Positions 1,224-60,804 of a DNA stretch of 64,000 nt are shown piece after piece. The translations under genes were made by a program, and so were the position numbers. Within the stretch, counting starts at the first letter, position 1, and each line of letters starts with the position of its first letter. This DNA comes from Patescibacteria group bacterium (lineage in GTDB: Bacteria > Patescibacteriota > SICC01): positions 574,017-638,016 of the forward strand of contig JBBDXB010000006.1 of assembly GCA_040902515.1 (NCBI GenBank), given 5' to 3'. The notes beneath the pieces were generated by a model that did not search any database, was not told the DNA's origin, and saw only the letters and a list, made by a program, of their open reading frames with translations.

Positions 1224-2927
1224 ATGCACATGAGTAACATCTTCAATCTGCGCTTTAGGCGCAAAAAGCTCTTCGTTGCCCTCGGCATGCTGCTGGCGCT
1301 CGCGGTCACTCCGCTGCTCCAGTCTTCGCAGGCCGCCGGTAACGTCATCATCGACAGCACGTTCTCGTCCCGGGTCTACAGCGGCCCCGGCGGCCCGACG
1401 GACTTCGCCGATACCACCACCGTCCGACACGGCAACGTGGTCCAGTATGGAATCCTGGTCCATAACGCCGAGGACGCCCGTTCTGGCGACAGCGCCAAGA
1501 ACTTCAAGATCCGGGTAACCATCCCCGACGCGTCCAACGGTTCTCAGGCCGTCAATACTGAGACCATCTCGGCCGATAACGGCCACTCCCCGGGAGCGTA
1601 CCGGAATACCGACACCACGACGCTGAAGTCGAAGGACGGTAAGCCGTTCACGATCACCGGTCTCCGCAACATCCAGTTGCAGCGGAACAACGTCCCCAAG
1701 ACGAACAACCCGACCTTCAACTGGAGCGCCCCGGAGAACATCCCGTACGAACGAGTAGAGGTCGAACGGAAGAACAACGCTTCCGTCCTGACGATTACGC
1801 CGACCAAGAGCGGCGACCTGGGACCGTGCTTCCAGAACGCGCTTCGGGTCATCTTCCTGGCTGACATCACCCAGGGGAAGCCTGGACCGCAGCTGGCGAT
1901 CGATAAGAAGGTCCGGAAGGCCGGAGAGACCAACTTCTCCGAAGCCAACACGATCAAGCCGAACCAGAACATGCAGTACTTCGTGGAGCTGAAGAACGTC
2001 GGCGGTGCTCCCGCCACGAACGTCGTGCTCCGTGACGCGCTGCCGCGACATGTCAAACTGATGCCGGGAAGCGTCCAGCTCCGGAGTTCGAGCAATACCA
2101 CGCTCAGACCCGGGCCGGATAACTTCGTGAACGGAGGAATCTCCTACGCGAGCTTCGGGCAAGGTGCCTGGGTCCAGGTGTACTTCAACGTTTCGGTAGG
2201 CGACCCCGGGGAGTGTCCCTGGTGGTTCAAGAACTTCGCACTCGTGAAGTCCGACCAGACCAACGGATCCGAGTTCTTTGACTCGGTGAAGACGGACCTG
2301 GTGTGCCAGCCGACACCGACACCGACTCCGACACCCACTCCTACACCTACGCCCACTCCGACTCCTACGCTGACGCCGACCCCGACACCGACCCCGACTC
2401 CCGAAGTCCAGATCGGTGATCTCCGGATCATCAAGTTCGAGGACCTCAACGGCAACGGTAAGGAAGACGAGGGCGAACCGCGGATGGCGGGAGTGACCTT
2501 CACGACCACCGGTCCGAGTGATTTCTCGAATACGTCACAGACCGACGAGAGCGGTGAGATCGTCCTCACGGACCTGGAAGAGGGTAGCTATACGGTGACC
2601 GAGACGGTTCCGCAGGGCTTCGAGGTGACCACGGAGAACCCGCAGACCAAGACGGTACAGACCGGTGAGACCGCGGAATTCTCCTTCGGCAACAAGCGCA
2701 TCGTGACGCCGACGCCAACCCCGACCCCGCCGACCGTCCAGACCCCGACTCCGGAAGCAACCCCGCCGGTGACGCCCCCGGGCGGCCCGAAGGGTCAACT
2801 GCCGGTGACCGGCGCCTCAGGCGCGGCTGGCCTGGCCACGATGGCCGTGGCGACCAGCGCGTACCTGTACCGCCGGGAACGGAACGCACTCGCTGAAGCG
2901 ATTCGTAACCATTCGGTAGACGGCTAA
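1224..2927 (+). CDS. Cell-surface protein with signal peptide, DUF11/Cna-B (SdrD B-like) type domains, Pro-Thr linkers and a C-terminal LPXTG sortase sorting signal (LPVTG + hydrophobic stretch + RRERN)
   Basis: Strong SD (aaggagg) 6 nt upstream of ATG; N-terminal MHMSNIFNLRFRRKKLFVALGMLLALAV signal; PTPTPT linkers; EDLNGNGKEDEGE...GSYTVTE Cna-B-like motif; LPVTGASGAAGLATMAVATSAYLYRRERN tail. Confidence 0.8.
   Translation: MHMSNIFNLRFRRKKLFVALGMLLALAVTPLLQSSQAAGNVIIDSTFSSRVYSGPGGPTDFADTTTVRHGNVVQYGILVHNAEDARSGDSAKNFKIRVTIPDASNGSQAVNTETISADNGHSPGAYRNTDTTTLKSKDGKPFTITGLRNIQLQRNNVPKTNNPTFNWSAPENIPYERVEVERKNNASVLTITPTKSGDLGPCFQNALRVIFLADITQGKPGPQLAIDKKVRKAGETNFSEANTIKPNQNMQYFVELKNVGGAPATNVVLRDALPRHVKLMPGSVQLRSSSNTTLRPGPDNFVNGGISYASFGQGAWVQVYFNVSVGDPGECPWWFKNFALVKSDQTNGSEFFDSVKTDLVCQPTPTPTPTPTPTPTPTPTPTLTPTPTPTPTPEVQIGDLRIIKFEDLNGNGKEDEGEPRMAGVTFTTTGPSDFSNTSQTDESGEIVLTDLEEGSYTVTETVPQGFEVTTENPQTKTVQTGETAEFSFGNKRIVTPTPTPTPPTVQTPTPEATPPVTPPGGPKGQLPVTGASGAAGLATMAVATSAYLYRRERNALAEAIRNHSVDG
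2308..2403 (+). repeat. Tandem hexanucleotide (ccgacN)n microsatellite encoding the (PT)n linker of the LPXTG protein
   Basis: ~16 near-identical ccgaca/ccgact/cctaca units in a row; encodes PTPTPTPTPTPTPTPTPTLTPTPTPTPTP. Confidence 0.8.
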
Positions 2928-3012: not shown

Positions 3013-4096
3013 ATGGAGCAGGAACTCCAGGAACGAATCGACAGCCTGGCGAAACGCTTTGCCCAGGTGAGGGAGTTTCTTTGACCTCGCCGGCAAAGAG
3101 ACCGAGCTAGCCGATCTCAAGAAACAGTCCGAGCGTGAGGACATCTGGCACGACCAGGAAGAGGCCCGGGCGGTGATGCAGCGGCTCAACGAGCTCGCCG
3201 AGCAGGTCGGGTTCTGGCAGCGATTCGAGCATGACCTCACCGACCTGCGGGAACTGCTGGGACTGTCCGGACAGGATGACAAGGCGGTGCGGGAGATCGC
3301 CACGAACCTGGGTGAGCTCGAACGCACGTTCACGCAACATGAATCGGCGGCGCTGCTCTCCGGCGAACACGACGCACGCCCGGCTCACGTGACGATCCAA
3401 GCCGGCGCGGGCGGGACCGACGCCCAGGACTGGGCGCACATGCTGGAACGGATGTACCTCCGGTTCGCGGAACGCCGCGGTTGGCGGACGGAGGTCGAGG
3501 AGCGTTCGGCGGGGGAGGAGGCCGGCATCAAGAGCGTGACGTTGCGGGTGGACGGCCCGTCGGCGTACGGGTACCTTCGGGGGGAATCGGGTGTCCATCG
3601 GCTCGTGCGGCAGTCGCCGTTCAACGCCAAGAGCCTCCGGCAGACCTCGTTCGCCCGGGTGGAGGTGCTTCCGGACCTGCCGTCACATGCCGTCGAGCTG
3701 GACGAGAAGGATCTGCGGATCGACACCTACCGAGCCTCCGGTGCCGGTGGCCAGCACGTGAACAAGACCGATTCGGCGGTTCGGATCACCCATCTGCCCA
3801 CCGGCCTGATCGCCCAATGCCAAAGCGAACGCTCCCAGGCGCAGAACAAGGAGGCGACGATGAAGATCCTCTACGGGAAACTCCTGGCGTTGGCCGAGAA
3901 GCAGCAGAAGGCGGATCTCCGGAAACTCGAGACCAGCGATACGGCGGCATGGGGAAACCAGATCCGCTCGTACGTCCTGCACCCCTACAAACAGGTGAAA
4001 GACCTCCGTACGCGTGTCGAACGGCCGGACCCGGACGCCGTGCTCGAAGGCGACCTCGACGACTTCGTGGAGGCGGAACTCCGGTTACCCCGCTAG
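3013..4096 (+). CDS. prfB: Peptide chain release factor 2, expressed via programmed +1 ribosomal frameshift (frame 0: 3013-3084 ending at in-frame TGA; +1 frame: 3083-4096)
   Basis: Frame 0 MEQELQERIDSLAKRFAQVREFL* ends at CTT TGA C, preceded by internal SD-like AGGGAG. This is the canonical RF2 autoregulatory frameshift site. Downstream frame carries SPF (RQSPFN) and GGQ (SGAGGQHVNKT) motifs. Confidence 0.9.
3070..3088 (+). promoter_or_regulatory. prfB +1 frameshift recoding site (AGGGAG-TTT-CTT-TGA-C)
   Basis: Internal Shine-Dalgarno-like AGGGAG 3 nt upstream of the CUU UGA C slippery/stop context, as in the E. coli prfB recoding site. Confidence 0.85.
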
Positions 4097-4516: not shown

Positions 4517-5992
4517 ATGGTTAAGCAATTTATGGACACCACGATCATTGGTCTCGGGCTCCTGCTGGCGATCACAGCCATCGTCGTACTGACCGTGCGG
4601 ATCCGGGCGTTGGCCCGGCAGGTCCGTTCCCGGGAGCTCGCGGTCAAGCGGGACCTCGGAAGAATCCGACAGATCGACCGAATGCTCCTGGCGAACCTGT
4701 CCCTCGGATACATCGCCCAAGAAGTGGCGAACGTCTTCGCCGACCACCGGGCCGTGCTCGGCGGTGCCGTCCAGCGGGCCAACCGCGACGGTACGCTCGA
4801 GGTACTGGCCGTCTCGGAGGAACTCAAGCGGATGGGAAACCGGGGGCTCGGCGTGCTGGCGCACAAGGTGCAGAGCGGCATCGAGCTGGAACGCAGCGGC
4901 TCCCTGATCGTCCGGGCCATCAACCAGCGGCAGATCATGGTGGGCGAACGGCTGGGTGACGTGGACGTGCCCGCGCTTACCCCCGGACAGGCCGGCAAGA
5001 TCCAGAAGCGTCTGGGCATCCGGGGCGTGGCGATTTATCCGGTGATGGCCAACGAGCGGGTCTACGGCGCGGTGACGTACTACCTGCGATCCCCATACGA
5101 GAGCCTGGGAGAGCGGGACAAGGAAACGCTCCAGGCGATGACCGACGGCGTGGCTGTCGCGATGGTGAACGCCAGCCTGCTCACGGAGATCGATGCGGTG
5201 AACCAGCGGCTGACCCAGGCCAACGCCGGTTTGAAACGGGCGGACGAGACCAAGGATGAGTTCGTCTCGATCGCCTCGCACCAGCTCCGCGGACCGCTCA
5301 CGGCGATCCGCGGCTACCTGGCGATGCTCGAGGATGGTGACTTCGGTGCGATTCCTGACCGCCAGCGTCCCGTCGTGGAGCAGATCTCCGAAAGCACGAA
5401 CGAGGTAATCAACATCCTGAACGACATGCTTTCCCTCTCGCGGATCAATGCCCGGCGCTTCGAGCTGACCCCCAGTCCCGTGCGGCTGGAGGACGTGGCC
5501 CGCGACGTCACCCGGGAATTCGAGTCGTTGGCCAAGAAGAAAGGACTGAAGCTCATCCTGGAGCTGCCGGACCAGACGATCGGCCAACTGAATCTCGACG
5601 GTCTCCGCATCCGCCAGGTCATCGTGAACTTCGTGGACAACGCGATCAAATACACGCAGAAGGGAACGGTGCGGGTCTCGATCGCCCAAGAAGGCGACGA
5701 AGCGGTCCTTCGTGTCCGGGATAGCGGTATCGGTATCTCGGCGGAAGACCGGCACAAGATGTTCACCAAGTTCTTCCGGGCGGATAACGCCCGGAACGTC
5801 CTGGCGTCCGGTACCGGCCTGGGCCTGTTCGTGGCCCGGCGGATCGTGGAGGCGCATGGCGGAAGCGTCATCCTGGAAAGCATTCTCGGCAAGGGAAGTA
5901 CGTTCGGGTTCCGCCTGCCGCTTCCCGCGGTACGCGGCGGCCACGGCGCCGCGTACCGTCGGTCTGCCCGGACCCCGGCCGTCGCGAGCTGA
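4517..5992 (+). CDS. Sensor histidine kinase (TM anchor, GAF-like sensor, HisKA, HATPase_c)
   Basis: TM helix IIGLGLLLAITAIVVLTV; H-box SIASHQLRGPLTAIRGYLAML; N box VNFVDNAIKYT; G1 DSGIGI; G2 GTGLGL. Start assigned to the ATG at 4517 (MVKQF) because the 4478 start would abut the divergent RR start. Confidence 0.8.
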   Translation: MVKQFMDTTIIGLGLLLAITAIVVLTVRIRALARQVRSRELAVKRDLGRIRQIDRMLLANLSLGYIAQEVANVFADHRAVLGGAVQRANRDGTLEVLAVSEELKRMGNRGLGVLAHKVQSGIELERSGSLIVRAINQRQIMVGERLGDVDVPALTPGQAGKIQKRLGIRGVAIYPVMANERVYGAVTYYLRSPYESLGERDKETLQAMTDGVAVAMVNASLLTEIDAVNQRLTQANAGLKRADETKDEFVSIASHQLRGPLTAIRGYLAMLEDGDFGAIPDRQRPVVEQISESTNEVINILNDMLSLSRINARRFELTPSPVRLEDVARDVTREFESLAKKKGLKLILELPDQTIGQLNLDGLRIRQVIVNFVDNAIKYTQKGTVRVSIAQEGDEAVLRVRDSGIGISAEDRHKMFTKFFRADNARNVLASGTGLGLFVARRIVEAHGGSVILESILGKGSTFGFRLPLPAVRGGHGAAYRRSARTPAVAS

Positions 5993-12740: not shown

Positions 12741-13751
12741 TTGTTCAGTAAACGGATCGGTATTGATTTAGGCACTTCGAACGTCCTCGTCTACGTCGAG
12801 GATAAGGGCGTGGTTATCAACGAACCGTCGGTCGTGGCGGTCTCGACGGAAGATAACCGGGTGATGGCGGTCGGCCAGGAAGCCAAAGAGATGGTCGGCC
12901 GGACTCCTGAACAAATCGTTGCACATCGTCCGCTGGCGGACGGCGTGATCGCCGATTACCGCGTGACCGAAGCGATGCTCCGGTACTTCATCAACAAGGC
13001 GGTAGGGAGCGTCCGCTTCTTCCGCCCCGACGTGATGGTCTGCGTGCCGGCCGGCGTGACCTCGACCGAGCGGCGCGCCGTGATCGACGCGACCACGGCG
13101 GCGGGCGCGAAGAACGCCTACATCATCCGGGAGCCGCTGGCGGCGGCGATCGGCGCGGATATTCCGATCGGTTCCGCCTCCGGCAACATGGTGATCGACA
13201 TCGGCGGCGGAACGTCCGAGGTCGCGGTGATCTCGCTCGGCGGTATCGTGGCGGTGGAATCCGCCCGTGTCGGCGGCGACAAGTTCGACCGGTCGATCGC
13301 GGCGTACGTGCGTCGGCGGCACAACCTGGCGATCGGCGACGTCACGTCCGAGCAGATCAAGATCCAGATCGGTTCGGCCATGACGTTGCCCGAAGGCGAG
13401 GAGATGAGCATGGAGGTGCGCGGCCGGGACATGGTCGCGGAGATGCCGAAGACGATCACCCTCAAGACGAACGAGGTGGTGCACGCGATCCAAAGCCAGC
13501 TCACGGAAGTGATCCAGGCAGTGAAGGGCGTACTCCAGCAGACGCCGCCGGAGCTATCCGCGGACGTGATCGACCGGGGAATGGTGATGGCGGGCGGTGG
13601 CTCGCTCCTCCGGAACATCGACCGGGTGATCACCCAGGCGACGAGCGTGCCGTGCCATGTGGCGGAAGATCCGCTGTTCTGCGTGGTGCGGGGAACCGGC
13701 GTGGCCGTCGAGAACCTCGATTCGTACAAACGGGCCGTCGCGGTACGGTGA
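12741..13751 (+). CDS. mreB: Rod shape-determining actin-like protein MreB
   Basis: IGIDLGTSN phosphate-1 motif, DIGGGT phosphate-2, full-length MreB similarity. Confidence 0.9.
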   Translation: MFSKRIGIDLGTSNVLVYVEDKGVVINEPSVVAVSTEDNRVMAVGQEAKEMVGRTPEQIVAHRPLADGVIADYRVTEAMLRYFINKAVGSVRFFRPDVMVCVPAGVTSTERRAVIDATTAAGAKNAYIIREPLAAAIGADIPIGSASGNMVIDIGGGTSEVAVISLGGIVAVESARVGGDKFDRSIAAYVRRRHNLAIGDVTSEQIKIQIGSAMTLPEGEEMSMEVRGRDMVAEMPKTITLKTNEVVHAIQSQLTEVIQAVKGVLQQTPPELSADVIDRGMVMAGGGSLLRNIDRVITQATSVPCHVAEDPLFCVVRGTGVAVENLDSYKRAVAVR

Positions 13752-51497: not shown

Positions 51498-52145
51498 ATG
51501 GCTAGGAAGGACCCGTCAGATATCGTGAGCGGAGCGGGGATGCTGACCAGCATCTTCACCAAGCTCGACAAGGCCGTGACCGCGGCCGGAGGCAGGCCCA
51601 AGGACATCCACCGGCTTGCCACCGACGAGGGTGACGCGCTGCTCACGCAGTTCGCCGAGCTGCTCGTGGTCAAGCAGGCCGGGGACAAGTACGTGATCAC
51701 CGTCAACTACGGCGAGCAGCTCAAGACGCTGATCGTCGACGGCGGTTACAACTGGGTCAACGACTACTACGAGGGCCAGACCTGGGACGACTGGAAACAG
51801 CAGGACGGAGTGACCCCTGTAATGTTCCCGTCCTGTCGCACGGTCGAGACTGAGGCCGTCGTCGTCCATCTCGACCGCTACGCCGAGACCGGCGAGGTGC
51901 TGGTGGAGCTCGACTTTCGGGGTCTCCGGCCCGCCGACGTAGCGGAGCTCTTGAGCTTCGGAGTCGCACACCCTGAGGTCCAGCGCGAGTTCCGGATCAT
52001 CGAGCTCGGCTCGATCTTGGGGGACCCGTATGGCAGCCGCTACGTGGCGTCTCTGTGGAGCGACTCCGGCCGGCGCTACCTCGACCTCTACTGGTACGAC
52101 GACCGGTGGGCTCCGGGCTGCCGGTTCCTCGCCTTCGGCAAGTAG
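51498..52145 (+). CDS. Hypothetical protein, paralog 1 (215 aa) of the protein at 60145-60804
   Basis: Shared features with paralog 2: MAR(K/R)...GAAG...AV..GG N-terminus, VTV(N/D)Y, GLRPA(D/N)(V/M)AEL, aromatic-rich C-terminus. Confidence 0.6.
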   Translation: MARKDPSDIVSGAGMLTSIFTKLDKAVTAAGGRPKDIHRLATDEGDALLTQFAELLVVKQAGDKYVITVNYGEQLKTLIVDGGYNWVNDYYEGQTWDDWKQQDGVTPVMFPSCRTVETEAVVVHLDRYAETGEVLVELDFRGLRPADVAELLSFGVAHPEVQREFRIIELGSILGDPYGSRYVASLWSDSGRRYLDLYWYDDRWAPGCRFLAFGK

Positions 52146-55251: not shown

Positions 55252-57087
55252 TTGCGTAGACTAGAGCTTATGCGCCAGCCGCACGACATCCGGAACATCG
55301 CGATCATCGCTCACGTGGACCACGGCAAGACCACGCTGGTCGATGGTTTACTCAAGCAGTCCAAGACGTTCCGCGACAACCAGGCTGAGATGGACGCCAG
55401 CCTGATCCTCGATACCGGCGATTTGGAGCGTGAGCGCGGCATCACCATTTCTGCCAAGACGGCGGCGGTGGAGTACGAGGGAACCAAGATCAACATCATC
55501 GACACGCCCGGTCACGCCGACTTCTCCGGCGAGGTGGAGCGGACGCTCGGGATGGCGGACGGTGTGATCCTGGTGGTGGACGCCCAGGAGGGGCCGATGC
55601 CGCAGACCACGTTCGTGCTAAAGAAGGCGCTCGCGCTCGGCCTGAAGCCGATCGTCGTGCTCAACAAGGTGGACAAGCCCAACGCCCGGACCGAGAAAGC
55701 CAAGGACGAGGTGGAGCACCTCTTCCTGGACCTAGCCGTCTCGGACGACCAGCTCGACTTCCCGACGTATTACGCGGTCGCGCGGGAGGGGAAGGTTTGG
55801 AGCGAGCCGCCGGCCAGTCCGGACGACCCGGCAGATCTCCAGCCGATCTTCAAGGCGATCCTGGAGCATGTACCCGCGCCGCCGGGCGATCCGGACGGGC
55901 CGTTCCAGATGCAGGTATCCGCGCTGGCGTGGGATTCGTTCCAGGGCACGTACGCGATCGGGCGGATCCAGCGGGGGAGCGTGCAGAAGAACGATCCGGT
56001 GGCGCGGATCGCTACGGACGGCAGCGTCACGCCGGCCAAGGCGGCGAAGATCTTCATCTCCAAAGGACTCGGCCGGACGGAAGAGGCAGCGGCCGGAACC
56101 GGCGAAATTGTGCAGCTTACCGGTATCGAGGGCGTGATGATCGGCGAGACGATCACCAGTCCCGACCGGCCCGACCCGCTTCCGGCGATGGAGATCGAAG
56201 CGCCGACCCTGAAGATCGCGATCGGTCCCAACACCTCGCCGTTCTCCGGCAAAGAGGGGAAGTTCTCGACGTCGCGGCAGATCGGGGCGCGCCTCGAGAA
56301 GGAACTGGAGACCAACGTGGCGCTGCGGGTCGAGGAGCAGGGAGCCTCGTTCATGGTGTCCGGCCGCGGCGAGCTTCACCTTTCGATCCTGATCGAGACG
56401 CTGCGGCGCGAAGGATTCGAGCTGGAGGTCAGCCGGCCGCAGGTCGTCACCAGGGAGGAAGACGGAAAGGTGCTGGAACCGGTAGAGGACGTGATCATCG
56501 AGGTGCCGGAGGAATACACCGGCGCGGTCACCACGGAGCTGGGCCGGCGGAAAGCGCAGCTCCAGGAGATGCAGCCGACCGCCAAGGGGGTCACCCGGTT
56601 CACGTACAAGCTCTCCACGAACGCCCTGCTCGGGCTGCGCAACGCCCTGCTGACCGCCACCAAGGGGACCGTGGTGATGAACAGCCTGTTGGCCGGGTAC
56701 GAACCGCAGAAGCCGCCGCTGGAGAAGCTCCGTAACGGCGTGCTGATCTCCGCCCAGACCGGCACCGCCGTCACCTATGGCCTGCTGGTGGTCGAGGAGC
56801 GGGGGACCGCCTTCATCGGTCCCGGTACCAAGGTGTACGAGGGGATGATCATCGGTCTGAACCGCCGGAGCGACGACATGGAGATCAACGCCTGTAAGGA
56901 GAAGAAGCTGACCAACGTGCGGGCCAGCGGGACGGACATGACCACCCAGCTGACGCCGTATACCGAGCTCAGCTTGGAGGAAGCGCTCGACTTCATCGAG
57001 ACCGACGAGCTGCTGGAGGTGACGCCCCAGTCGCTACGCATGCGGAAGCGCCATCTGACGGAACTCGACCGGCGGCGGAACCGATAG
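55252..57087 (+). CDS. typA: Translational GTPase TypA/BipA (alternative start 55270)
   Basis: AIIAHVDHGKTTLVD G1, DTPGHADF, NKVDK; domains II-V of EF-G-like architecture and BipA-specific C-terminal domain. Confidence 0.9.
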   Translation: MRRLELMRQPHDIRNIAIIAHVDHGKTTLVDGLLKQSKTFRDNQAEMDASLILDTGDLERERGITISAKTAAVEYEGTKINIIDTPGHADFSGEVERTLGMADGVILVVDAQEGPMPQTTFVLKKALALGLKPIVVLNKVDKPNARTEKAKDEVEHLFLDLAVSDDQLDFPTYYAVAREGKVWSEPPASPDDPADLQPIFKAILEHVPAPPGDPDGPFQMQVSALAWDSFQGTYAIGRIQRGSVQKNDPVARIATDGSVTPAKAAKIFISKGLGRTEEAAAGTGEIVQLTGIEGVMIGETITSPDRPDPLPAMEIEAPTLKIAIGPNTSPFSGKEGKFSTSRQIGARLEKELETNVALRVEEQGASFMVSGRGELHLSILIETLRREGFELEVSRPQVVTREEDGKVLEPVEDVIIEVPEEYTGAVTTELGRRKAQLQEMQPTAKGVTRFTYKLSTNALLGLRNALLTATKGTVVMNSLLAGYEPQKPPLEKLRNGVLISAQTGTAVTYGLLVVEERGTAFIGPGTKVYEGMIIGLNRRSDDMEINACKEKKLTNVRASGTDMTTQLTPYTELSLEEALDFIETDELLEVTPQSLRMRKRHLTELDRRRNR

Positions 57088-57104: not shown

Positions 57105-57151
57105 ACACCCCCTGACTCTTGTCCTTGCGGACGTTGGTGAGCCAGGGGGTG
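57105..57151. repeat. Hairpin repeat copy 1 (acaccccctgactc-ttgtccttgcggacgttggt-gagccagggggtg); likely terminator for the - strand J-domain gene (A-run upstream = U-run on - strand)
   Basis: Near-identical (44/47) to copy 2 at 59340-59386; 13-bp stem with one G-U. Confidence 0.7.
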
Positions 57152-57155
57152 GTGG

Positions 57156-58364
57156 TTATGGGTGGGGATGTATGCCGAAGTCGGGGGCGTAGGATGTGTA
57201 CGATCCTCCGGCAATACGGCCGACCACCGAATCGGACCGTGACGGCGTGTAGTACTCGAGCGTATTTTCCTCCACGCCCAGGCCTTCATGGGGCGGCCAC
57301 TCGATGTTGAGGTAGACATCGGCCCCACGACGTGGGAACCGCAACCGTCCATTGGCAGCTGCGACATCCTTGAGCCTGTCACCGACGCCCATACCGTAAC
57401 GGTCACGGTACTGACGGCTGGTGGTCGAATACGCCGAAACATAGAGCCGGTTCCTGTTCTTACTGACTCCTTCGAGCTTGTCGCCCTGGACGAACACGAC
57501 AGCGACCAGTCCTCCGTCGGTCTCATAGAATGCAGACCTAGATTTCCCCAATCTGTCGAATGGGTATGGGTATGCCTGGGTATCCCTCGGCAGCCCCCAA
57601 ATCGCGTTCACCCGGTCATAGTCCATATGTACCTTGATCGGTCCGATCCGGTGAGGCGTAACGAGGAACTCGGGAGGTGGAGCACTTTGCCGGGCCTGCT
57701 GGATTACCGCCTGCCGTCGCTGCTGCCCCTCGGTCAGTTCAGGTGTCCCGGAATCGCCTCCGGACACCTGGAATCCGAACCAGATCAGGAATATCATTCC
57801 TGTGATAAACCCGAGTTGGCCCCACTTGATGCGGCTCGGCCGCTGCCGGCCCGGTACCGGACGCGCCTGCGTCGGCCGGGGTTGTCTGGGCCGGGGTTGT
57901 CTCGGTCGTCCAGAGGGCCCCGGACCCGGCTGTCGCCGAGCCTGCTGCCGCTGTCGAGCCTGCTGCCGCTGTCGCGGTGGCGGCGCCTGGCCCGGCCGCG
58001 GCGGGGTGGTTCCGCCGGGCGTCCCCGTTCCGCCGAACCGCTGGTAGGCCGCCTCGTGCTCATCGTCCCATTCGGGATCGTCCGGCGGGTCCGGCTTCGG
58101 CGTGGCGTGGCCCGGACCCGGCTGCCCGCCGTTCGGCGTGGCTCCGGTTCCGGCATCTTGCGCGGCGTCGTACTGCTTGCGCCGCTCCGGGTCGGACAGG
58201 ACGGCGTACGCCTCCTGCACGGCCTTGAAGCGCTCCTCGGCGAACTCGTCGCCGGGGTTCGCGTCGGGGTGGTCGCGGCGTACCGCGGCGCGGTACGCCT
58301 TCTTGATCGCTTCCTCCGTCGCATCCTTCGGAACACCGAGGATGCCGTAGTAGCTGCTGGCCAT
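57156..58364 (-). CDS. J-domain (DnaJ-like) membrane protein with Pro-rich linker, single TM and C-terminal domain of unknown function
   Basis: N-terminal J domain [34 protein letters not shown] (HPD present); Pro/Gln/Arg-rich region; [15 protein letters not shown]; ~170-aa C-terminal domain. Confidence 0.7.
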
Positions 58365-58522
58365 GGGACCGTACCTCCTCGGTATCTGGTTTTCCGGATT
58401 GTTAAGGGCCGACCTGTCGGCTGGTTATTGTATGCGAGGGGTGGATGCTTGGCAATTTTCCCCAGCCTACGCTACAATCACTTGCCATACTGGCACCTTT
58501 ACAATCCGACAGAAAGGCACGC

Positions 58523-59320
58523 ATGAAAACGCAACGTGACATCGCGCGGCTGCTCGTGGACTCCAGCGCCCAAGGAACGCTTAGCGCCGACTCGCTTCGG
58601 GCGCTGCAGGACATCCCGGGCGTTCAGCATGAGGTCGGGCGGTCGCTCGGGGACTCCGTTCCCGAAGACCTCAACGATCTGCTCCTTCTCTCCATCCTGG
58701 TCGACGACTCGGGCTCGATCGCCTGGGCGAAGAACACCCGGGCGGTCCAGAACGGGCACAACCGGGTCGTCCAGGTGGTCCTGGAGGCGGGTATCGCCCG
58801 GAACGTGCTGCTCCAGACGCGGTTCCTGAACGGCAAGGTCGTGAACCCATATGTGCCGCTGCTCAAGGCCGACCCGCTCGACAGCGGCAACTACGGTGAG
58901 CACGAGTTCGGCGGGACGCCGCTGTACGAGCAATCGGTGGTCCTGCTCGGGTCCGTCGCCGCCAAGACCCGCGAGCTCGAGGCGAAGGGCAAGTCCGCCC
59001 GGAGCATCACGCTGATCATCACCGACGGTGACGACCAGCATTCAGGAAAGATCACCGCCGGGCACGTCGCCTGGTTGGCGAACGACCTCAGGCGCAGCAA
59101 GCGGCACATCGTCGCCGGCATGGGCGTCGAGGATGGCAGCACCAACTTCCGGAGGATCTTCCGGGAGATGGGCATCCCCGACAAGTGGCACCTGACCCCG
59201 AACGCCGATCCGTCGGCGATCATCCAGGCGTTCAAGGATTTCGGAGAGGCGGCTGCCAAGGCCAGCATCGACCCGGCATCCTTCGAGCGTCTCGCGTTGG
59301 GACCCGGCTTCTCGCAGTGA
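58523..59320 (+). CDS. von Willebrand factor A (vWA) domain protein
   Basis: MIDAS LVDDSGSI (DxSxS) and downstream ITLIITDGDDQ threonine/aspartate motif. Track ORF begins at 58445; ATG 58523 preferred (TACAAT boxes upstream). Confidence 0.65.
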   Translation: MKTQRDIARLLVDSSAQGTLSADSLRALQDIPGVQHEVGRSLGDSVPEDLNDLLLLSILVDDSGSIAWAKNTRAVQNGHNRVVQVVLEAGIARNVLLQTRFLNGKVVNPYVPLLKADPLDSGNYGEHEFGGTPLYEQSVVLLGSVAAKTRELEAKGKSARSITLIITDGDDQHSGKITAGHVAWLANDLRRSKRHIVAGMGVEDGSTNFRRIFREMGIPDKWHLTPNADPSAIIQAFKDFGEAAAKASIDPASFERLALGPGFSQ

Positions 59321-59339
59321 GAACCGACCCATACGTACT

Positions 59340-59390
59340 ACACCCCCTGACTCTTGTCCTTACGGACGTTAGTGAGTCAGGGGGTGTTTT
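59340..59390. repeat. Hairpin repeat copy 2 (acaccccctgactc-ttgtccttacggacgttagt-gagtcagggggtg + tttt); intrinsic terminator for the vWA gene
   Basis: Perfect 13-bp stem followed by a T-run; homologous to copy 1. Confidence 0.75.
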
Positions 59391-59407: not shown

Positions 59408-59935
59408 ATGGCAACTAACCGGAGTCCCTGGCAGCGCATCACCGGCTGGTACGACCGCCACTACCAGCTCGCGGTCACCGTTTCGGCGGCATTGTTCCTG
59501 ACCCAGCTCGTGCACCTCTACTGGCTGACGGCGCACGTGGTCGCGTTCCGGCTGGTCGAGCAGAGCTACTGGAGTTTGGCGCCGATCTGGCAAACCGCGC
59601 TTTCCGCCGCCGATTATCTGGAGATTCCCGCGCTGGTCGCCACCAGCATTCTCTACGTGATGATCCTGCGCCGCCGTTTCTCGTGGATACGGCTCCTGAT
59701 CCTGATCGGCATCAACCTGCAGTGGCTCCACATCGCCTGGATCACCGACGAGTTCGTGGTGTCGAGTCTCGGGGTCGGCGAGGAGGGGACGGCCCACTGG
59801 CCGGTCTGGCTGGCCTGGGCCGCGATCGTGATCGACTACCTGGAGCTGCCAGCGATTTTCGACACGACGCGGGAGTCCATCCGGCAGTTCCGGAAACGGG
59901 GCCTGCGCGGCTTGCGCGAGGCGTTGAAGGAATAA
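59408..59935 (+). CDS. Hypothetical polytopic membrane protein (175 aa)
   Basis: 4-5 predicted hydrophobic helices (LAVTVSAALFLTQLVHLYWL, LVATSILYVMIL, LLILIGINLQWL, VWLAWAAIVIDYL). Confidence 0.5.
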   Translation: MATNRSPWQRITGWYDRHYQLAVTVSAALFLTQLVHLYWLTAHVVAFRLVEQSYWSLAPIWQTALSAADYLEIPALVATSILYVMILRRRFSWIRLLILIGINLQWLHIAWITDEFVVSSLGVGEEGTAHWPVWLAWAAIVIDYLELPAIFDTTRESIRQFRKRGLRGLREALKE

Positions 59936-60144: not shown

Positions 60145-60804
60145 ATGGCTCGCCGTAAGGCAGAGTTCGTCGGAGCGGCCGGGACGGTCCTTGAGATCAT
60201 CAAGGCACTTTCCCAGGCGGTGCTCGACAGCGGGGGTTCGGAGGAGGACCTACGCCGGATCATCAGGGAGGAGCCGCTGCGTAACCGGATCGCCGGAATG
60301 CTGGTCGATTGGTCAAGCTCCCGGTACCTGGTCACGGTGGATTATCGCCGTGACTTGGGGCACCTCGCTCCCGACGGTTACGCGGGCTGGGCGGGCTTCT
60401 GGTCCGACTGGACCGCGCTGGACGGCAGTCCGGTGCATCAGGAGAACAAGGTAGTCATCACCGATGTCGTGCTGGTAAAGCTCGAGCTTTCCGACGATGA
60501 TCGCGATGACTTCGACCGACCCAGGCCTGATACTGCGAAGGTGCTCAAGCAGCTCGACCGGCAGGGCTTGCGCCCCGCCAACATGGCGGAGTTGTTCGCG
60601 TTCCTCAAGGAGTATTCCGACGTGCTGGAGAAGGGTCCGTTCGAGGGCGCCGTTGCACTGGGAGCGACTCGGAATGGGGATGTTGCCCTGTTCTGGGACA
60701 AAGCGTCCCCCGATGGTCATGGTTACTTCGATGGCGTTCGCCCTGATGATGCCCACTGGCCCGAGCACGTCGGCTTCCTCGCCGTTCCCGTCGAGCAGTC
60801 CTAG
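60145..60804 (+). CDS. Hypothetical protein, paralog 2 (219 aa) of the protein at 51498-52145
   Basis: See paralog 1; strong SD aaggagg upstream. Confidence 0.6.
   Translation: MARRKAEFVGAAGTVLEIIKALSQAVLDSGGSEEDLRRIIREEPLRNRIAGMLVDWSSSRYLVTVDYRRDLGHLAPDGYAGWAGFWSDWTALDGSPVHQENKVVITDVVLVKLELSDDDRDDFDRPRPDTAKVLKQLDRQGLRPANMAELFAFLKEYSDVLEKGPFEGAVALGATRNGDVALFWDKASPDGHGYFDGVRPDDAHWPEHVGFLAVPVEQS

Follow-up and report, generated by a model that had tools for sequence, protein, structure and literature searches.

Repeated hairpins, most likely intrinsic terminators, around a conserved J-domain and vWA gene pair in a Patescibacteria genome

Two nearly identical copies of a 47-nucleotide (nt) repeat lie on either side of a pair of divergently transcribed genes in a 64,000-nt stretch of a Patescibacteria group bacterium genome (assembly GCA_040902515.1, contig JBBDXB010000006.1, positions 574,017 to 638,016; hereafter the window). 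One of these genes encodes a membrane protein with a J domain, and the other encodes a protein with a von Willebrand factor A (vWA) fold. This arrangement raises the question of whether the repeats are the ends of a module that moves or is regulated as a unit, as the initial annotation of this DNA had suggested, or whether they serve the two genes in a more conventional manner. We conclude that, on present evidence, there is nothing dramatic about the locus, and that it is best seen as a conserved, uncharacterised gene pair flanked by ordinary terminators. The hairpins formed by the repeat constitute a small, lineage-specific family, and the most likely explanation, to which we assign a probability of roughly 0.6, is that they are Rho-independent terminators that insulate the J/vWA pair.

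The repeat occupies positions 57105-57151 (copy 1) and 59340-59386 (copy 2), with 44 of 47 positions identical, and its consensus is ACACCCCCTGACTCTTGTCCTT(G/A)CGGACGTT(G/A)GTGAG(C/T)CAGGGGGTG. When the window was searched with this pattern allowing up to three mismatches, only these two sites, which the initial annotation had reported, were matched (57106-57151 and 59341-59386), and none of 100 dinucleotide shuffles of the window contained any match. A repeat finder recovered the same pair (family D3, 94% identity). In a scan of the whole window with a covariance model and its filters off, copies 1 and 2 scored 75.6 and 77.1 bits, respectively, and the next best hit scored 13.2 bits. Both copies fold into a two-tier hairpin composed of a 13-base-pair (bp) outer stem, a 4-bp inner stem (GTCC/GGAC), a tetraloop, and an asymmetric 6-nt bulge on the 3′ side. 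Folding energies range from -32 to -39 kcal/mol, and z-scores relative to shuffled sequences range from -3.3 to -6.2 (-34 kcal/mol and z = -6.2 for copy 1 on the minus strand; -38.9 kcal/mol and z = -5.8 for copy 2).

Each hairpin in the window starts 5-20 nt past a stop codon on the transcribed strand. Copy 1, with its motif in the plus orientation, is located between two convergent genes. It begins 18 nt past the stop codon of the translational GTPase gene typA/bipA (55252-57087, plus strand; NCBIfam TIGR01394 TypA_BipA, 813 bits, above cutoff) and ends 4 nt before the stop codon, at 57156, of the J-domain gene (57156-58364, minus strand). A run of six A residues precedes copy 1, so that the minus strand reads the hairpin followed by U6 (UUUUUUAU). 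The tail of copy 1 on the plus strand, GUGGUUAU, is a weak U-tract. Copy 2, also in the plus orientation, lies 20 nt past the stop codon of the vWA-fold gene (58523-59320, plus strand) and is followed by UUUUCGAG, a weaker tract with only four U residues, before the next ATG at 59408. Thus, both copies combine a stable GC-rich hairpin past a stop codon with an adjoining U-tract, as intrinsic terminators do, and the placement of one terminator after each gene that had been proposed from the sequence is borne out. A simple terminator scanner, whose loop limit is 3-8 nt, listed neither copy.

The hairpin family includes 12 copies at six loci (the window, L030, L006, L007, L005, and L014), all of which derive from the source metagenome-assembled genome (MAG) or its relatives. 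Among the genomes found, the nearest is CAYZCS01, a MAG of an uncultured member of the Saccharibacteria; its locus L030 matches the window in gene order and encodes a vWA-like protein with 92% identity to the window protein. An identical 6.4-kb contig is present in the Patescibacteria MAG GCA_040881485.1. The vWA-like proteins of L006, L007, and L005 are 73%, 68%, and 64% identical to the window protein. A hairpin directly follows the vWA-like gene in all six close-clade cases (one in each of these five loci plus a paralogue in L005). This paralogue is only 34% identical to the window protein and is divergent from another J gene, and the hairpin that follows it carries a compensatory CCCCATG/CATGGGG change. 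A second hairpin past the divergent J gene is also found in L006 and L030, and its absolute orientation there matches that of the window copy.

We aligned 10 copies by structure and built a covariance model, R1, from the same 10 copies. The alignment supports a common 13-bp outer stem, 4-bp inner stem, and 3′ bulge. Standard base pairs are formed by 98.2% of its cells, compared to 35-49% when the partner column is slid by one to three positions, and compensatory changes occur at four pairs; none of 500 shuffles attained the observed values. True copies score 60-78 bits with R1 in the sense orientation versus 30-43 bits in antisense. Paired columns are 91-96% identical between loci, compared to 55-62% for internal unpaired columns and 41-56% for the divergent promoter region. 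Sequence conservation therefore applies to the stems, and that of the loop and bulge does not exceed background. All 12 family copies are located 5-60 nt past a stop codon and have a T- or A-rich tract on the gene-end side or, at sites between convergent genes, tracts on both sides of the hairpin. Because a U-rich tract thus accompanies every copy on its gene-end side, we consider the hairpins most likely to be intrinsic terminators.

The family is narrowly distributed. A strict pattern search of 185,579 species genomes returned 30 stretches, and only two of these, with three copies, are true members, both in the CAYZCS01 MAG. Two of the three copies surround the syntenic J/vWA pair of L030, and the third is on another contig (L014). 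The remaining stretches were Brevundimonas coding sequence and chance matches, and were set aside. R1 added two further L014 copies that have a 5-bp inner stem (GGTTC or GGTCC/GAACC) and that keep the outer stem and the GTTGGT bulge, which brings this MAG to at least five copies on two contigs. The three L014 copies are confined to 2.8 kb (within segments 654-740, 2873-2924, and 3348-3480), where they follow genes for small membrane proteins and are upstream of smpB. A segmental duplication, which copied the smpB leader and the first ~30 codons (smpB 5′ fragment at 3452-3560), includes two of the three. The smpB gene also adjoins the J/vWA genes in L005 and L006, and the L006 copy past the J gene is likewise upstream of smpB and shares a GACCC/GGGTC stem variant and flank with L014. 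The possibility that the 47-mer is a common terminator repeat unrelated to this gene pair had been raised at the outset, and it holds in part: the three L014 copies are beside smpB and small membrane-protein genes, and the repeat is low-copy, with only two occurrences in 64 kb.

Other searches were negative or served to delimit the family. No copy matched the strict pattern in IMG/VR, and Rfam gave no match at the gathering threshold for the window or at E ≤ 1 for the locus. A 10-mer half-site from the hairpin arm occurs 11 times in the window versus 12.8 expected, and on this basis a reading of the repeat as a DNA uptake sequence was dropped. A metagenome scan that used the arms only (CCCCTGACYC..GRGTCAGGGG) returned at least 120 unrelated perfect hairpins, and this pattern was rejected as too generic. 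When 100 of the metagenome arm matches (L047-L146) were rescored with R1, none exceeded 39 bits. In many metagenomes (L047-L166), abundant perfect palindromes that are unrelated to the family, such as CACCCCCTGACCCCCTCTCC..GGAGAGGGGGTCAGGGGGTGAGG, have the arm CCCCTGACCC/GGGTCAGGGG at their core, and therefore arm similarity alone does not show family membership. We found nothing relevant in the literature on repeated terminator hairpins in Saccharibacteria, including in a paper on Patescibacteria genetics.

A second hairpin family was observed in L005 (AACCGCACGACCC ... GGGTCGTGCGGTT; 51-118, 2381-2447, and 5355-5423). It has a similar two-tier architecture and a GGT bulge, is unrelated in sequence, and scores 18-26 bits with R1. 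The reuse of terminator hairpins may accordingly be more general in this group of organisms.

The two genes between the hairpins are separated by a 158-bp region (58365-58522) in which the initial annotation had noted TACAAT boxes. This region contains two back-to-back sigma-70-like promoters with 10 of 12 matches each. The predicted plus-strand promoter is TTGGCA-18-TACAAT (58449-58478), the predicted minus-strand promoter is TTGCCA-17-TACAAT (58455-58427), and the -35 hexamers of the two overlap. Use of these promoters would drive the two genes in opposite directions from a shared -35 region. A TAnAAT -10 box upstream of the vWA-like gene is kept in all relatives.

The vWA-like protein (265 residues) has a predicted fold of high confidence (AlphaFold2; pLDDT [predicted local distance difference test] 92.5, predicted template modelling score 0.92). 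A fold search gave 47 Protein Data Bank (PDB) matches at E ≤ 1e-3, and all top matches are vWA domains with a metal ion-dependent adhesion site (MIDAS), such as those of CMG2, C2a, NorD, Rea1, and integrin I domains. The MIDAS motif DxSxS..T..D is complete (D61-x-S63-x-S65, T132, D168); among 31-32 homologues, D61, S63, T132, and D168 never vary, and the conservation of S65 is at least 90%. The original identification of a MIDAS-containing vWA protein is hence right at the level of fold. The protein also carries an N-terminal helical extension of ~50 residues and has no predicted transmembrane helix. At least 663 homologues, ~45% identical, occur across Myxococcota, cyanobacteria, and the candidate phyla radiation (CPR), and none were found in GenBank phages or PLSDB plasmids. 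The protein matched no Pfam or NCBIfam model at E ≤ 0.01, and a sequence-profile search of the PDB with its family gave no match at E ≤ 1. PADLOC recognised neither this protein nor the J protein. Thus, the vWA-like protein is a member of a family that is missed by curated models, although one family member carries the JGI name YegL-like.

The J protein (402 residues) carries, from N to C terminus, a J domain, an acidic motif, a Pro/Arg/Gln-rich linker, one transmembrane helix, and a C-terminal domain of ~177 residues. The J domain (residues 4-66; 58167-58355, minus strand) matches Pfam PF00226 DnaJ with E = 5.6e-25 (87.7 bits versus a cutoff of 27.8) and includes the HPD motif (H32-P33-D34). 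A Kyte-Doolittle scan predicts the single transmembrane helix at residues ~181-203 (57756-57824, minus strand), with one hydrophobic 19-mer near residue 184, which agrees with the earlier description of a membrane J-domain protein. The predicted topology would place the J domain in the cytoplasm and the C-terminal domain (57159-57689, minus strand) presumably outside the membrane. This latter domain has no family assignment and is rare: five matches at E ≤ 1e-3 were found among 1.84 billion representatives, one of which is a protein that combines a J domain, a transmembrane helix, and this C-terminal domain, and a word-indexed protein search with the domain gave no match. It is encoded as a separate neighbouring gene in L006, L007, and L005. 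A search with the full-length J protein returned only the L030 orthologue (P0121) as similar beyond the J domain, the other hits being generic J domains, and the exact 402-residue protein is absent from a collection of 5.8 billion clusters that does include the neighbouring vWA-like protein.

The acidic linker motif (residues 93-111; 58032-58088, minus strand) is unchanged between the window and L030. It recurs as EW(D/T)DE..AAY..FG in the J proteins J224 of L006 and J436 of L005, in linkers that are otherwise of low complexity. This motif is a candidate docking site and could conceivably serve as a ligand of the vWA MIDAS.

Escherichia coli DjlA, DjlB, and DjlC are membrane-anchored J-domain co-chaperones. 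Like them, the window protein has an HPD-containing J domain that is predicted to face the cytoplasm and is held by a single transmembrane tether. Beyond the J domain it has no sequence similarity to them (the NCBIfam DjlA model gives E = 7e-4, far short of its cutoff), and it carries, in addition, the acidic motif, a linker rich in Pro and Arg, and an external C-terminal domain that is rare and diverges fast. In L007, a 52-residue open reading frame (261-425) lies between the J and vWA-like genes and encodes four CxxC motifs. One of these, CSGCNGHG, fits the DnaJ zinc-finger pattern CxxCxGxG, and the sole Pfam match of this frame is a weak double-zinc-ribbon.

The adjacency of the J and vWA-like genes is a consistent feature of this lineage. 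A J gene is directly adjacent to all seven vWA-like genes at six loci (the window, L030, L006, L007, L005 with two vWA-like genes, and L181). The two genes are divergent in the window, L030, L006, L007, and the L005 paralogue, and convergent in the case of the L005 orthologue and L181. An independent route, which started with a homologue of the J C-terminal domain, led to the last of these loci, where the vWA-like protein is only 45% identical to that of the window and no hairpin is present. Gene pairing therefore extends further than the hairpin.

Outside this lineage, the genomic setting of the vWA-like family is different. We examined 19 such loci, 7 from cellular genomes and 12 from IMG/VR contigs of 42-545 kb, most of which exceed 80 kb (loci including L008, L010, L012, L043-L046, and L167-L178). 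None has a J gene neighbour. Rather, all 19 have a gene for a kinase of ~620 residues, 18 have one for an isochorismatase-like protein of ~350 residues, and 16 have one for a PP2C phosphatase, and these genes are absent from the window, L005, L006, L007, and L030. Together with the vWA-like gene they form a usual four-gene cassette in Myxococcota, cyanobacteria, CPR, and IMG/VR members. Its kinase and E. coli YegI are homologues (E = 2e-13), and NrtR, nicotinate phosphoribosyltransferase, or isochorismatase genes of NAD salvage are often nearby. When the proteins are placed in a distance tree, those linked to J genes branch deeply, outside a tight clade that holds all context-verified kinase-linked members; the genomic context was checked for part of this tight clade. 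The co-occurrence of J and vWA genes expected from the initial annotation therefore holds for this lineage and fails elsewhere, and the pairing is confined to a narrow lineage and is not general for the vWA family. The literature held nothing relevant on a J-domain/vWA neighbourhood.

This cassette resembles the TerY-P triad, in which a TerY-like vWA protein is joined by a PP2C phosphatase and a Ser/Thr kinase (Anantharaman et al. 2012; Gao et al. 2020; both as relayed in PMC11090510). The likeness lies in a vWA-like protein with a perfect MIDAS that is elsewhere found in an operon with PP2C and a YegI-homologous kinase. The window differs in that it carries neither kinase nor phosphatase and that a J membrane protein is the partner in this lineage. 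The usual cassette of the family also differs from the triad by its fourth, isochorismatase-like gene, and PADLOC does not recognise it: there was no match for its PP2C and a marginal one only for its kinase. Similarity between the vWA-like protein and E. coli YegL is marginal (hhalign probability 39%). In E. coli, the yegI-pphC-yegL triad adjoins the Hsp70-family gene yegD (bioRxiv 10.1101/303594), and this position sets a precedent for connecting Hsp70 with a triad of the TerY type.

These observations can be assembled into a working model for the locus. Copy 2 would be the long-inherited terminator of the vWA-like gene, and copy 1 a paralogous copy between the convergent J gene and typA, where the hairpin and its U6 tract would stop transcription of the J gene. 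With their shared -35 promoters, the hairpins would insulate the J/vWA pair as a compact unit of divergent transcription. That copies 1 and 2 are nearly identical probably reflects duplication or gene conversion of the hairpin rather than the ends of a mobile element. The J protein would be anchored in the membrane with its HPD-containing J domain in the cytoplasm, where it could stimulate DnaK, so that Hsp70 recruitment is plausible, and its C-terminal domain would be a fast-changing part outside the membrane. Its partner would be a cytosolic, TerY-like vWA/MIDAS protein that has dispensed with kinase and phosphatase. The J protein may have taken over as the vWA partner and either tether the vWA protein at the membrane or hand it to Hsp70, with the acidic linker motif possibly mediating contact between the two. 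The repeat with its structure and covariation, its placement at gene ends, the J domain, the vWA fold with its MIDAS, and the gene neighbourhoods are what we observed, and terminator and promoter activity, membrane topology, and any interaction among the J protein, the vWA-like protein, and DnaK are what we infer from sequence.

The hairpins resemble intrinsic terminators in having a GC-rich stem-loop past the stop codon followed by a U-tract, with A/T-tracts on both sides between convergent genes. They are unlike them in that a 47-nt body, whose stem has two tiers and whose asymmetric bulge is fixed, is reused and is common to unrelated genes. Unlike ordinary intrinsic terminators, the hairpin body is also common to species that are ~35% apart at the protein level.

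Several observations weigh against a terminator role or against the model built upon it. The U-tract of copy 2 is only four residues long, and the one that copy 1 offers typA on the plus strand is poor. The stems are conserved in sequence beyond what a plain terminator needs, which may involve a partner that binds a specific sequence or homogenisation that is still going on. The terminator model also leaves without explanation that all copies at a locus point the same way, including those that serve genes on opposite strands. In CAYZCS01, the hairpin is also found beside genes other than the J/vWA pair, which counts against specificity for the pair. The left break of a segment that has diverged from L030 (described below) abuts copy 1, which gives room for a role in recombination. 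As for the proteins, the evidence for a functional link between J and vWA is adjacency in only about five independent lineages. An AlphaFold2 model of the J protein, made from a two-sequence alignment, has a pLDDT of 35 and is unusable. Finally, there is no Hsp70/DnaK gene in the window, where the only candidate is a weak actin-fold match at 12750-13310.

Some of these points would be accommodated if the hairpin were a dispersed element similar to repetitive extragenic palindromic (REP) sequences or miniature inverted-repeat transposable elements. Such an element would have been spread or homogenised by an enzyme of the REP-associated tyrosine transposase (RAYT) or HUH type, its terminator role would be secondary, and its position around the gene pair would be incidental. 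The high identity of stems across loci relative to promoter regions, the occurrence of copies at unrelated sites in a relative, and the single orientation of all copies of a locus are in keeping with this idea. The same can be said of the second L005 hairpin family, with its like architecture and three copies in 6 kb, and of the preserved asymmetric bulge, as in hairpins whose recognition takes place on a single DNA strand. In E. coli, REP hairpins combine the roles of terminator and mRNA stabiliser (bioRxiv 10.64898/2026.03.23.713779), and REP sequences and bacterial interspersed mosaic elements (BIMEs) have been surveyed with RepRanger (PMC12306157). Like them, the hairpins described here are extragenic imperfect palindromes at gene ends that are conserved in sequence and often lie between convergent genes.

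However, only two copies are present in 64 kb and at least five in the relative, there are no tandem BIME-like clusters, and the arm half-site is not enriched. The strict pattern is true in just one of the 185,579 species genomes. No conserved 5′ tetranucleotide was identified, no transposase was evident near any copy (no search was aimed at RAYT genes), and the hairpin is kept vertically at one specific gene. Moreover, two of the three additional L014 copies arose through the segmental duplication that includes the smpB 5′ end rather than by insertion of an element, and conservation at the unpaired positions does not exceed background. We therefore regard a REP-like origin as unlikely, though less so than the alternatives that follow.

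The hairpin could instead be a cis-acting RNA element of the 3′ untranslated region that is bound by a protein and co-regulates the stability or translation of both mRNAs, with termination being incidental. Its retention after every close-clade vWA-like gene, including the paralogue of 34% identity, fits this proposal, as do the conserved structure with covariation and the stabilising role of the E. coli REP hairpins cited above. However, the J transcript carries the reverse complement of the motif, which has a different bulge and loop and scores only 30-43 bits. The loop and bulge bases, moreover, show no conservation above background, and there is no Rfam match even at the permissive threshold. 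A shared regulatory element of this kind seems to us quite improbable.

The window and L030 are 88-98% identical in DNA sequence except for two segments, 57158-57873 and 60350-60775, where identity falls to ~35-55%. The first corresponds to the transmembrane helix and C-terminal domain of the J protein, and the second lies within a gene for a protein of 219 residues (60145-60804) that has a paralogue in the window (51498-52145) and a relative in L005 (2438-2956). The C-terminal domain of the L030 J protein is 50% identical to the product of the separate L006 gene, compared to 33-35% to the window domain. These patterns suggest either allele replacement or fast diversification of parts that are presumably exposed at the surface.

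In a bolder account, the J/vWA pair would be a kinase-free offshoot of a TerY-P-type cassette for signalling or conflict. A membrane J protein with a rapidly swapped surface domain would sense something outside the cell, such as a host or a phage, Hsp70 would switch the MIDAS protein in place of control through phosphorylation, and the hairpins would double as recombination boundaries for exchange of the outer domain. We consider this combination of roles a long shot.

The notion of a mobilised unit, for which the repeats would be attachment-site- or cassette-like ends, fares worst. In its favour, the window, L030, and L006 have hairpins in direct orientation on either side of the pair, and the outer neighbours of the pair differ between L006 and the window (smpB and the C-terminal domain gene in L006; typA and mem175, a gene on the plus strand at 59408-59935 for a membrane protein of 175 residues without a family match, in the window). 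The collapse in identity between the window and L030 with its left break at the edge of copy 1, and the closer relationship of the L030 C-terminal domain to the L006 gene, point the same way. However, no recombinase, integrase, or transposase was evident in or beside the unit among the neighbouring genes that were listed or scanned with Pfam. GC content inside the unit (0.59-0.72) is similar to that of the flanks (0.60-0.67), with no break in GC or skew, and a signal of horizontal transfer was dropped on these grounds. Gene order from typA through the J gene, vWA, and mem175 to a VTT-domain gene is the same as in L030. None of the few relatives recovered has an empty site, the hairpin-bounded interval of L005 holds the housekeeping gene smpB, and the more distant L181 pair has no hairpin. 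The break at 57158 also coincides with the J stop codon, and may simply mark the replacement of a coding segment. An integron attC reading was rejected as well, since no integrase is found among the neighbours and no R″/R′ core sites (RYYYAAC/GTTRRRY) are present at the stem base, where the letters are CACCCCC/GGGGGTG; GTTGGT is in the internal bulge and not at the stem base. Mobility of the pair between these repeats is thus very improbable.

With the hairpins read as probable terminators, the locus suggests that the reduced genomes of Saccharibacteria episymbionts reuse one structured terminator hairpin, with a stem sequence that has persisted across long evolutionary distances. Such retention hints at a function beyond termination, and the family provides a handle for annotating terminators in genomes of candidate phyla. 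The vWA-like proteins, in turn, make up a widespread family for which there is no Pfam, NCBIfam, or PADLOC model, and whose usual setting would be an unrecognised four-gene cassette akin to TerY-P. The replacement of kinase and phosphatase by J proteins in one lineage offers a testable link between TerY-type vWA proteins and Hsp70, which echoes the unexplained position of yegD in E. coli.

One further repeat was noted far from the gene pair. Degenerate 12- and 18-nt tandem repeats of the ACNCCGAC type occupy window positions 2313-2757 within a coding region, where they probably encode a Pro/Thr-rich linker.

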